From the NCBI RefSeq assembly GCF_988242995.1, contig NZ_OZ547043.1: a stretch of DNA of 64,000 bases; one strand, written 5' to 3'. The position numbers and the translations under genes are program-made. The notes beneath the pieces were generated by a model, which was not told the DNA's origin, did no database searches, and saw only the letters and a list, made by a program, of their open reading frames with translations. Every line of letters begins with the position of its first letter. The first letter of the stretch is position 1. Below are positions 20,050 to 21,610 of the stretch, piece by piece.

Positions 20050-20120
20050 TCGTAGGCATTAGACATTTGTGCCTGATGCGACGCTTGATGAACTGAACCC
20101 CAAAACCTGGACAGTTTCAG

Positions 20121-20972
20121 TTAACCGGCTTTTTGATGCTCAGTCCGGTATTCTACCGGACTGAGTCCCCCAAGACTGAGTTTTATTCTTTTTTGATTCC
20201 AGTAAGTTATGTATTCGTTAACGGCATTTTCCAGCTCTTCTACATTTCTGTAGTCCCGGCGATAGTACATTTCTTCTTTCAGGTGACCAAAGAAGTTCTC
20301 CATTACCGCATTATCAAGGCAGTTGCCCTTGCGCGACATGCTCTGCACTAACCCTCTGTCCGCCAGGGCGGACTGATAACTTTTTATCCGGTAATGCCAT
20401 CCTTGATCACTGTGGAGCAGCGGTTTCTCCCCTTCAGCAAGGCTTTCCAGCCCCTTATTTAACATCCGCTTCACCAGCTCCTCTGTAGGCCTGCAGGCCG
20501 TTTCCCACGCCACGATTTCCCCGTTAAACAAATCAAGTATCGGGGACAGGTACAGTTTTTGTCCGCCAGCCCTGAATTCGGTGATATCTGTCACCCATTT
20601 CTCACAGGGAGCTTCCGCTTTGAACTGCCGCTGAAGGATATTTTCTGCAGCGAGTCCCATATTTCCCCGGTAAGACCGGTATTTCTTCAGGCGCACAGGA
20701 GACTTCAGGCCGAGCTGTTGCATCAGTTTTCGCACCGTTTTGCCACTGAACTTAAGACCTCTTTTCTGAAGCTCACAATGGATCCGCCGGTACCCATAAC
20801 ATCCCCGGTGTTCATGGAAGATGGAGGCTATGAGCTGTTTCACATCAGCATACTTGTCCTTAGCCTTCTGCAGTGACAGCTGGTAGTACAGCGTGCTTCT
20901 GGCCAGCCCTGCAGCCTTTAACAGGTCAGACTGGCAGTGTCCGCACCTCAGGCTCCGGATGACTTTCGTTTT
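20121..20972 (-). CDS. insK: IS150 transposase OrfB (DDE catalytic domain), made by programmed frameshift from orfA
   Basis: 240-aa track ORF with integrase-core motifs; the 5' end overlapping orfA is approximate. Confidence 0.7.
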   Translation of the reverse strand, partial: KTKVIRSLRCGHCQSDLLKAAGLARSTLYYQLSLQKAKDKYADVKQLIASIFHEHRGCYGYRRIHCELQKRGLKFSGKTVRKLMQQLGLKSPVRLKKYRSYRGNMGLAAENILQRQFKAEAPCEKWVTDITEFRAGGQKLYLSPILDLFNGEIVAWETACRPTEELVKRMLNKGLESLAEGEKPLLHSDQGWHYRIKSYQSALADRGLVQSMSRKGNCLDNAVMENFFGHLKEEMYYRRDYRNVEELENAVNEYITYWNQKRIKLSLGGLSPVEYRTEHQKAG

Positions 20973-21478
20973 TTCTCCAGCTCCTGGCGCTTTTTTTCCA
21001 GGAGATGCTCCTGCATGGCTTTCAGATATGCATTTTCTGCGCGAAGATAACGCAGCTCATTCTTCATCTCTTCCGGCGTCATGTTTGCCTCGTTTTCATG
21101 GGTATCATCAGAACGGGTCATGCTTTTCTCCTTCCTGCGCCTGATAAAGGCCTCATTACCAGATTTGCGGTAGCCTTTTATCCAGTTTTTAACCGTGTTG
21201 TGGCTGGGAATGTTAAACCGGGCAGCTACCCGGGGTAGAGACTCAGAATGCCCGAGAGCATAAAGAACCACGCAAAGTTTATCTTCAGGAGAATAGCTAC
21301 GCTTGTGTCTGCAATCCAGTGCCCGAGGACCGTGAAGAAGAAAAAGATTAATCCAGTGTGAGAGGCTGGTGTGAGAAAGTTGAAAGAGTTTTGCCGTAGA
21401 AATGATGCCTGCATGACCAGCCAGGTAATGATTTACAGCGGCAAGTTTTACTTCAAATGAATGTTTCATAAACTGCAC
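20948..21478 (-). CDS. insJ: IS150 transposase OrfA (HTH)
   Basis: 176-aa ORF matching recalled IS150 InsJ. Confidence 0.8.
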   Translation of the reverse strand: MQFMKHSFEVKLAAVNHYLAGHAGIISTAKLFQLSHTSLSHWINLFLLHGPRALDCRHKRSYSPEDKLCVVLYALGHSESLPRVAARFNIPSHNTVKNWIKGYRKSGNEAFIRRRKEKSMTRSDDTHENEANMTPEEMKNELRYLRAENAYLKAMQEHLLEKKRQELEKKRKSSGA

Positions 21479-21610
21479 CTTCAGATGTCAGATTATGTCC
21501 AACATTTGGGGTGCAGTTCATGACGCGTCTTATCAGGCCTACAATGGGTACCGGAGCGTTAAGCCGGATAAGGCGTTCACGCCGAATCCGGTAAGAATAT
21601 GAGCACCAGG

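Follow-up and report, generated by a model that had tools for sequence, protein, structure and literature searches.

REP sequences, or palindromic units, are extragenic imperfect palindromes of about 35 bp with the consensus GCC(G/T)GATGCG(G/A)CG...CG(C/T)CTTATC(C/A)GGCCTAC; they occur in clusters (BIMEs) of alternating orientation, with a copy number that differs among strains. Insertion sequences of the IS3 family carry two consecutive, partly overlapping reading frames, orfA followed by orfB in the -1 frame, and an OrfAB fusion arises at a slippery heptamer. Their transposase is of the DDE type, with a retroviral-integrase-like core, DD(35)E, and a K or R seven residues after the E. The elements end in imperfect terminal repeats of the form 5'-TG...CA-3', have target duplications of 3-4 bp, and usually transpose by a copy-out/paste-in route through a circular intermediate. 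One member of the family, IS1397, inserts specifically into the REP sequences of E. coli (PMC1525189; PMC3184786); its transposase is thought to set this choice of target (PMC1525189), and the copy in CFT073 splits a REP at its centre (PMC1525189, supplement 13). IS1397 is already known, as are its family and its specificity for REP loops, and at the locus described here only the insertion site is new.

The element studied lies between ybcF and purK in the window, as we call the whole stretch of 64,000 nucleotides that was analysed (Table 1). It is almost certainly a complete and apparently functional IS1397 (IS3 family, IS150 subgroup) inserted in the loop of a REP, and not IS150, as a sequence-only reading of the same DNA had named it. 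The element is 1,432 bp long, starts with TGAACTGAACCCC at 20089 and finishes with GGGGTGCAGTTCA at 21520. The range given by the sequence-only reading, 20086-21523, is that of the element together with both copies of the TGA that flank it. That reading had also seen recognisable inverted-repeat ends, and rightly so: the 25-bp imperfect terminal repeats, TGAACTGAACCCCAAAACCTGGACA at one end and the reverse complement of TGAACTGCACCCCAAATGTTGGACA at the other, match at 21 of 25 positions, and a 16-nt end motif occurs in the 64-kb window only at the two ends of the element, against 0.1 occurrences expected by chance. The TGA target duplication is equally real, since its copies lie directly outside both ends and the empty-site allele described below agrees with it.

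Table 1. Coordinates in the window of the insertion, its coding features, its target and the neighbouring genes.
Feature	Position	Strand	Basis or remark
ybcF (carbamate kinase), upstream neighbour	19156..20049	+	ORF; RefSeq at homologous loci; stop codon 39 bp before the element
Y-type REP/palindromic unit, left half including left TGA (GCCTGATGCGACGCTTGA)	20071..20088	.	
Target duplication TGA, left copy	20086..20088	.	Confirmed against empty-site allele
IS1397, complete 1,432-bp copy, transposase genes on minus strand	20089..21520	-	100% identity to RefSeq-labelled copies
Terminal inverted repeat IRR, 25 bp, distal to transposase start	20089..20113	.	21/25 match to other end
OrfAB transframe transposase, 449 aa	20121..21469	-	Pfam HTH_21, rve, rve_2; NCBIfam
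orfA, 173 aa + stop codon, helix-turn-helix DNA-binding protein, ATG at 21469	20948..21469	-	Pfam HTH_28, HTH_Tnp_1
Slippery heptamer A AAA AAG, programmed -1 frameshift orfA to orfB	20990..20996	-	In orfA/orfB overlap
Predicted RNA hairpin, IS terminus paired with orfA Shine-Dalgarno and AUG	21466..21523	-	14-nt arms, 93% complementary
Terminal inverted repeat IRL, 25 bp, proximal to transposase start	21496..21520	.	21/25 match to other end
Target duplication TGA, right copy	21521..21523	.	Confirmed against empty-site allele
Y-type REP/palindromic unit, right half (TGACGCGTCTTATCAGGC)	21521..21538	.	
Z-type palindromic unit, intact, second and inverted in BIME (GCCGGATAAGGCGTTCACGCCGAATCCGGT)	21563..21592	.	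Repeat search, fold; conserved in all spacer alleles
purK, downstream neighbour, convergent with ybcF, co-oriented with transposase	21611..22678	-	ORF; RefSeq at homologous loci

The flanks gcctgatgcgacgcttga and tgacgcgtcttatcaggc had been described as the halves of a single REP-type palindromic unit split by the insertion, and this is what we find. The palindrome halves GCCTGATGCGACGCTTGA and TGACGCGTCTTATCAGGC are mutually complementary, and the repeat search returns a 43-nt composite inverted repeat that consists of REP half, duplication and terminal repeat. A comparison with an IS-free allele, as the sequence-only reading had proposed, was made with strain Yu5, the closest complete genome, which is 99.0% identical over the adjacent 19.5 kb and has an empty ybcF-purK spacer. 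With the element and one TGA removed, the window spacer is 126 bp long and aligns gap-free to that of Yu5, with a single mismatch near purK and complete identity across the palindrome TGCCTGATGCGACGCTTGACGCGTCTTATCAGGCCTAC. It is this match to an empty site that fixes both the boundaries of the element and the 3-bp duplication. When folded, the reconstructed target gives a strong hairpin (z = -4.4), whose 5-nt loop, TTGAC, contains the TGA. It is extragenic, with the ybcF stop codon on one side and that of purK on the other, and the placement of the insertion next to the purK 3' end was therefore correct; the two genes are convergent and carry these names in RefSeq at homologous loci. No repeat features are listed for the empty spacer in the K-12 RefSeq table, and no Rfam family overlaps the insertion.

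The split palindrome belongs to a small BIME, in which a second, inverted unit of the Z type follows at 21563-21592 and the number of units varies among strains. The window, Yu5 and D1 have two palindromic units each, K-12 and NCTC9100 have a further block of about 68 bp, and there are bigger clusters in the spacers of Trh52 (L012), 1105 (L013) and A20 (L021). It is because of this difference in the number of units that the length of the ybcF-purK spacer varies, from 126 bp (the window minus the IS, and Yu5) through 136 bp (D1) to 194 bp (K-12 and NCTC9100). Within the 64-kb window, the 33-nt palindrome has no further copy at up to 3 mismatches. The REP half-consensus has one other weak site there (41943-41956, GCCGGATGCGGCAC, 1 mismatch), REPs being sparse in these 64 kb. 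Since a single window cannot show a repeat family, membership of the REP family is shown by the other loci discussed below and by the published E. coli REP31, given in two parts as TGCCGGATGCGGCGTA and AACGCCTTATCCGGCCTAC (PMC1525189, supplement).

A 120-nt junction-specific query found the exact junction of the window in none of the 5,426 complete E. coli genomes (0/5,426 at 80% coverage). Because it is absent from both these genomes and the closest relative, the window insertion is an independent, relatively recent and lineage-specific event. The earlier suggestion that the copy is a strain marker is borne out by the same absence, and the insertion is usable as a lineage-specific marker.

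With respect to its coding capacity, the element has the features of an IS3-family member. The frames orfA and orfB overlap and share a slippery heptamer through which the OrfAB fusion is made, orfB being in the -1 frame and ending at 20121. The RefSeq CDS of an identical copy is a two-piece join labelled 'programmed frameshift'; its limits correspond to window 20121-21469, which are also those of the model that we built independently. OrfAB matches Pfam rve (E = 3.8e-21) as well as rve_2, and it scores 387 bits against NCBIfam NF033516 (IS3 family transposase), for which the cut-off is 160. Alignment to the InsK protein of IS150 places the DD(35)E core at D295 (20586-88), D355 (20406-08) and E391 (20298-300), followed by K398. 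The ends, TGAACTG... and ...CAGTTCA, with their imperfect match and the TGA duplication, are also those of the family. Judged from these features, the window copy looks fully intact, and from its intactness we infer that it may still be active.

Could this copy instead be an old, fixed and inactive relic, and not a recent insertion of a live element? The consensus scan detected no sigma-70-like promoter inside the element, which would suit a relic, although a missing promoter of this type is not unusual among IS3-family elements. (A terminator scan gave one weak terminator-like site inside the element, fewer than expected from shuffles.) On the other side stand the intact OrfA, frameshift site, OrfAB and DDE triad, both terminal repeats and a perfect duplication, as well as the 100% identity to copies at another locus in other strains. 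Moreover, the nearest relative, whose flanks are 99.0% identical, has no insertion at this site, and none of the 5,426 genomes has the junction. We therefore consider a relic very unlikely, and retain the recent insertion of an intact element.

The identity of that element follows from comparison with other genomes. Over its full 1,432 bp it does not differ from the copies in SCU-102 and 7CC (100% identity), and among the matches listed it is 99.9% identical to 23 other records; all 25 of these best matches listed carry the RefSeq label 'IS3-like element IS1397 family transposase', and none is labelled IS150. Of the 3,491 E. coli records with a match, 3,470 have a best match of 95% identity or more; by the ISfinder convention, two copies are the same IS when their nucleotide identity is at least 95%. 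As assigned from sequence, the name IS1397 rests on the RefSeq label and on matching behaviour. The published length of IS1397, which we take to be 1,432 bp, is that of the window element, and this agreement speaks against the idea that a close relative (ISKpn1 or an unnamed isoform) has been lumped under the RefSeq 'IS1397 family' label. The idea draws on the label being a family-level one, and on ISKpn1 being a documented REP-targeting relative (PMC1525189); papers cited there describe ISKpn1 as specific for Klebsiella palindromic units. Considering that the host here is E. coli, that the units hit are of the Y and Z types of E. coli, and that identity of at least 95% in nearly all of the matching records points to one homogeneous element, we regard a mislabelled relative as highly improbable and keep the name IS1397.

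As the reference for IS150 we have used the copy in K-12 MG1655 (L001:1134-2576), annotated 'insertion sequence:IS150' with insJ and insK. The window element has only about 55% global DNA identity to this authentic copy. Its two frames, taken by the sequence-only reading for the orfA and orfB of IS150, are those of a different IS3-family member, with amino-acid identities of 27% for OrfA and 51% for the OrfB part. IS150 was also rejected by length (1,432 bp for the window element versus 1,443 bp) and by its ends (TGAACTG(C/A)ACCCC... in the window element versus TGTACTGCACCC..., that is TGTACTG..., in IS150). In short, the IS150 name has next to no chance of being right: it has in its favour the common IS3-family layout with the A AAA AAG heptamer, related terminal repeats (both with ...TTGGAC) and an OrfB that resembles InsK, but it is contradicted by the DNA identity, the length and the low OrfA identity just given, and by the 25 best matches listed (99.9-100% identity), every one annotated IS1397.

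The name has consequences. IS150 is tracked in evolution experiments, and naming the present element IS1397 avoids miscounted IS150 copies both in strain typing and in the bookkeeping of such experiments. The corrected name also explains the position of the element: because REPs are the specific target of IS1397, its location in a REP is expected and not incidental. The same behaviour is seen elsewhere. IS1397 copies at three unrelated loci, zinT-msrQ, trmL-cysE and caiE-caiF, are each in a REP hairpin loop, with 3-bp duplications (GCT, ATT and CCA, respectively). Together with the window copy and those in four other ybcF-purK palindromes, all are insertions into REP loops. Every unrearranged copy sampled has a short flanking duplication, of 3-4 bp in general and of 2 bp at a damaged copy of 1,431 bp. 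We have dropped the notion of a fixed orientation of IS1397 relative to the Y- or Z-type unit, since the unbiased sample amounts to no more than 4 loci and the way of searching favoured one orientation in the same-spacer set.

Throughout the E. coli genomes, IS1397 matches occupy 7,607 chromosomal places versus 7 plasmid places, a bias that is as expected because the REP target is essentially chromosomal. Some match to IS1397 is present in 3,485 of the 5,426 genomes and a near-full-length copy in just 1,707; partial relics of the element must thus be common. One genome has at least 40 IS1397 pieces.

These observations lead us to adopt the following scheme. OrfAB would be made by -1 frameshifting at A AAA AAG, and would recognise the palindromic unit and integrate into its hairpin loop with a 3-4 bp staggered cut. 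At the present locus, IS1397 entered the TTGAC loop of the Y-type unit in the small ybcF-purK BIME, duplicating TGA, presumably by the usual copy-out/paste-in transposition of the IS3 family via a circular intermediate.

The ybcF-purK spacer has received IS1397 more than once. At least six complete genomes carry the element between these genes, in the same orientation as in the window and none at the window's site; six is a lower bound, as the search would not have joined copies in the opposite orientation to their flanks. In Trh52 (L012) the element lies in a Z-type unit with the duplication GTT, in A20 (L021) in a different Z-type unit with GTTT, and in 1105 (L013) in a Y-type unit with TGGC. 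The copy in BH100 (L014), again in a Z-type unit, is a frameshifted pseudogene of 1,431 bp with the duplication TC. The remaining two have no duplication. In A36 (NZ_CP028739.1, L015:654-2085) the flanks are hybrid, with a Z-type half on the left and a Y-type half on the right, which points to an event within a single BIME cluster, either a deletion or the recombination of two copies. In SK0189 (NZ_AP046539.1, L016:420-1851), where gsk is joined to purK, the left flank is a Y-type half and the right flank is the purK-adjacent Z-type half; it looks as if two IS1397 copies recombined and the whole stretch from gsk to ybcF was thereby lost, the glyoxylate/allantoin cluster with it. The SK0189 genome has 32 IS1397 places.

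The tally for the spacer is thus the window insertion, at least four more that arose independently in other palindromes, and two rearranged copies that lack a duplication. Perhaps the ybcF-purK BIME is a recurrent landing pad for IS1397, and the element has driven structural change here time and again, although we offer this tentatively and think it distinctly less probable than not. If it were true, the window copy would be a pre-deletion intermediate. As for the recombinational effects of which the sequence-only reading had seen a potential source in the element, they are plausible in view of the copies without duplication and the hybrid flanks in A36 and SK0189, but those are events in other strains and not in the window.

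The polar effects that had also been suggested have fared less well: the genes on either side converge, the insertion separates their 3' ends, and no gene is disrupted. What the element does split is the REP hairpin that follows ybcF, and the direct phenotypic effects of the insertion are likely to be small, perhaps the loss of this REP stem-loop 3' of ybcF. The purK stop codon is 91 bp from the element. Because the transposase genes are this close downstream of purK and co-oriented with it, purEK read-through could enter the element. Read-through shields have been described for other insertion sequences, and a candidate for such a device is the predicted terminal hairpin, in which 21510-21523 (including the flanking duplication) would pair with 21466-21479 (MFE -31.8 kcal/mol, z = -3.5). 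We infer from this fold that the hairpin would act as a shield, blocking orfA translation on purK read-through transcripts. As a functional shield, it may be what allows IS1397 to reside immediately 3' of expressed genes.

Some features of the surrounding window deserve mention. For window 21524-41000 the best complete-genome match is just 99.0% (Yu5 and KK05-19), and the source lineage is consequently not closely represented in the 5,426 complete RefSeq E. coli genomes. A tRNA-Arg gene (anticodon TCT, argU-like) is located at window 34814-34890; in the syntenic region of Yu5, an intD integrase comes directly after the tRNA-Arg, together with genes of a lambdoid prophage (exo, bet, gam, replication genes and one for a repressor-like S24 peptidase). 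A prophage integrated at argU therefore probably makes up the right-hand part of the window. On the other side of the insertion, the enterobacterial sRNA STnc480 is matched at window 11906-11972 on the plus strand (Rfam 84.9 bits versus a gathering score of 72), in what by synteny with Yu5 is the glxK-allE region.

How then does the window element compare with the known systems? With IS1397 it has in common its sequence, its length of 1,432 bp, the orfA/orfB -1 frameshift, insertion into a REP loop and a 3-4 bp duplication. No difference from IS1397 was detected, and just the insertion site is new (a palindrome with TGA, absent from the 5,426 genomes). IS150, with its insJ and insK genes in K-12, is like the window element in subgroup architecture, in the A AAA AAG heptamer, in its terminal repeats and in its DDE transposase, but differs in its DNA (about 55% identity), OrfA (27%), OrfB (51%) and length (1,443 bp). 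IS150 is not reported as REP-specific (PMC1525189; PMC3184786), and one of its two CFT073 copies adjoins a REP in the table of Tobes and Pareja (PMC1525189). ISKpn1, an IS3-family element of Klebsiella pneumoniae, is likewise specific for REPs or palindromic units and has a transposase that sets the choice of target, according to PMC1525189 and the papers cited in it; it is set apart by its described association with Klebsiella-type units, as against the E. coli-type units and the IS1397 label of the window element. Finally, IS621 of E. coli also targets REPs (PMC1525189; PMC3184786), but it belongs to an unrelated family, IS110, has another transposase, unlike the IS3-family DDE enzyme of the window element, and inserts at a specific site beside the REP inverted repeat and not into its loop (PMC3184786).
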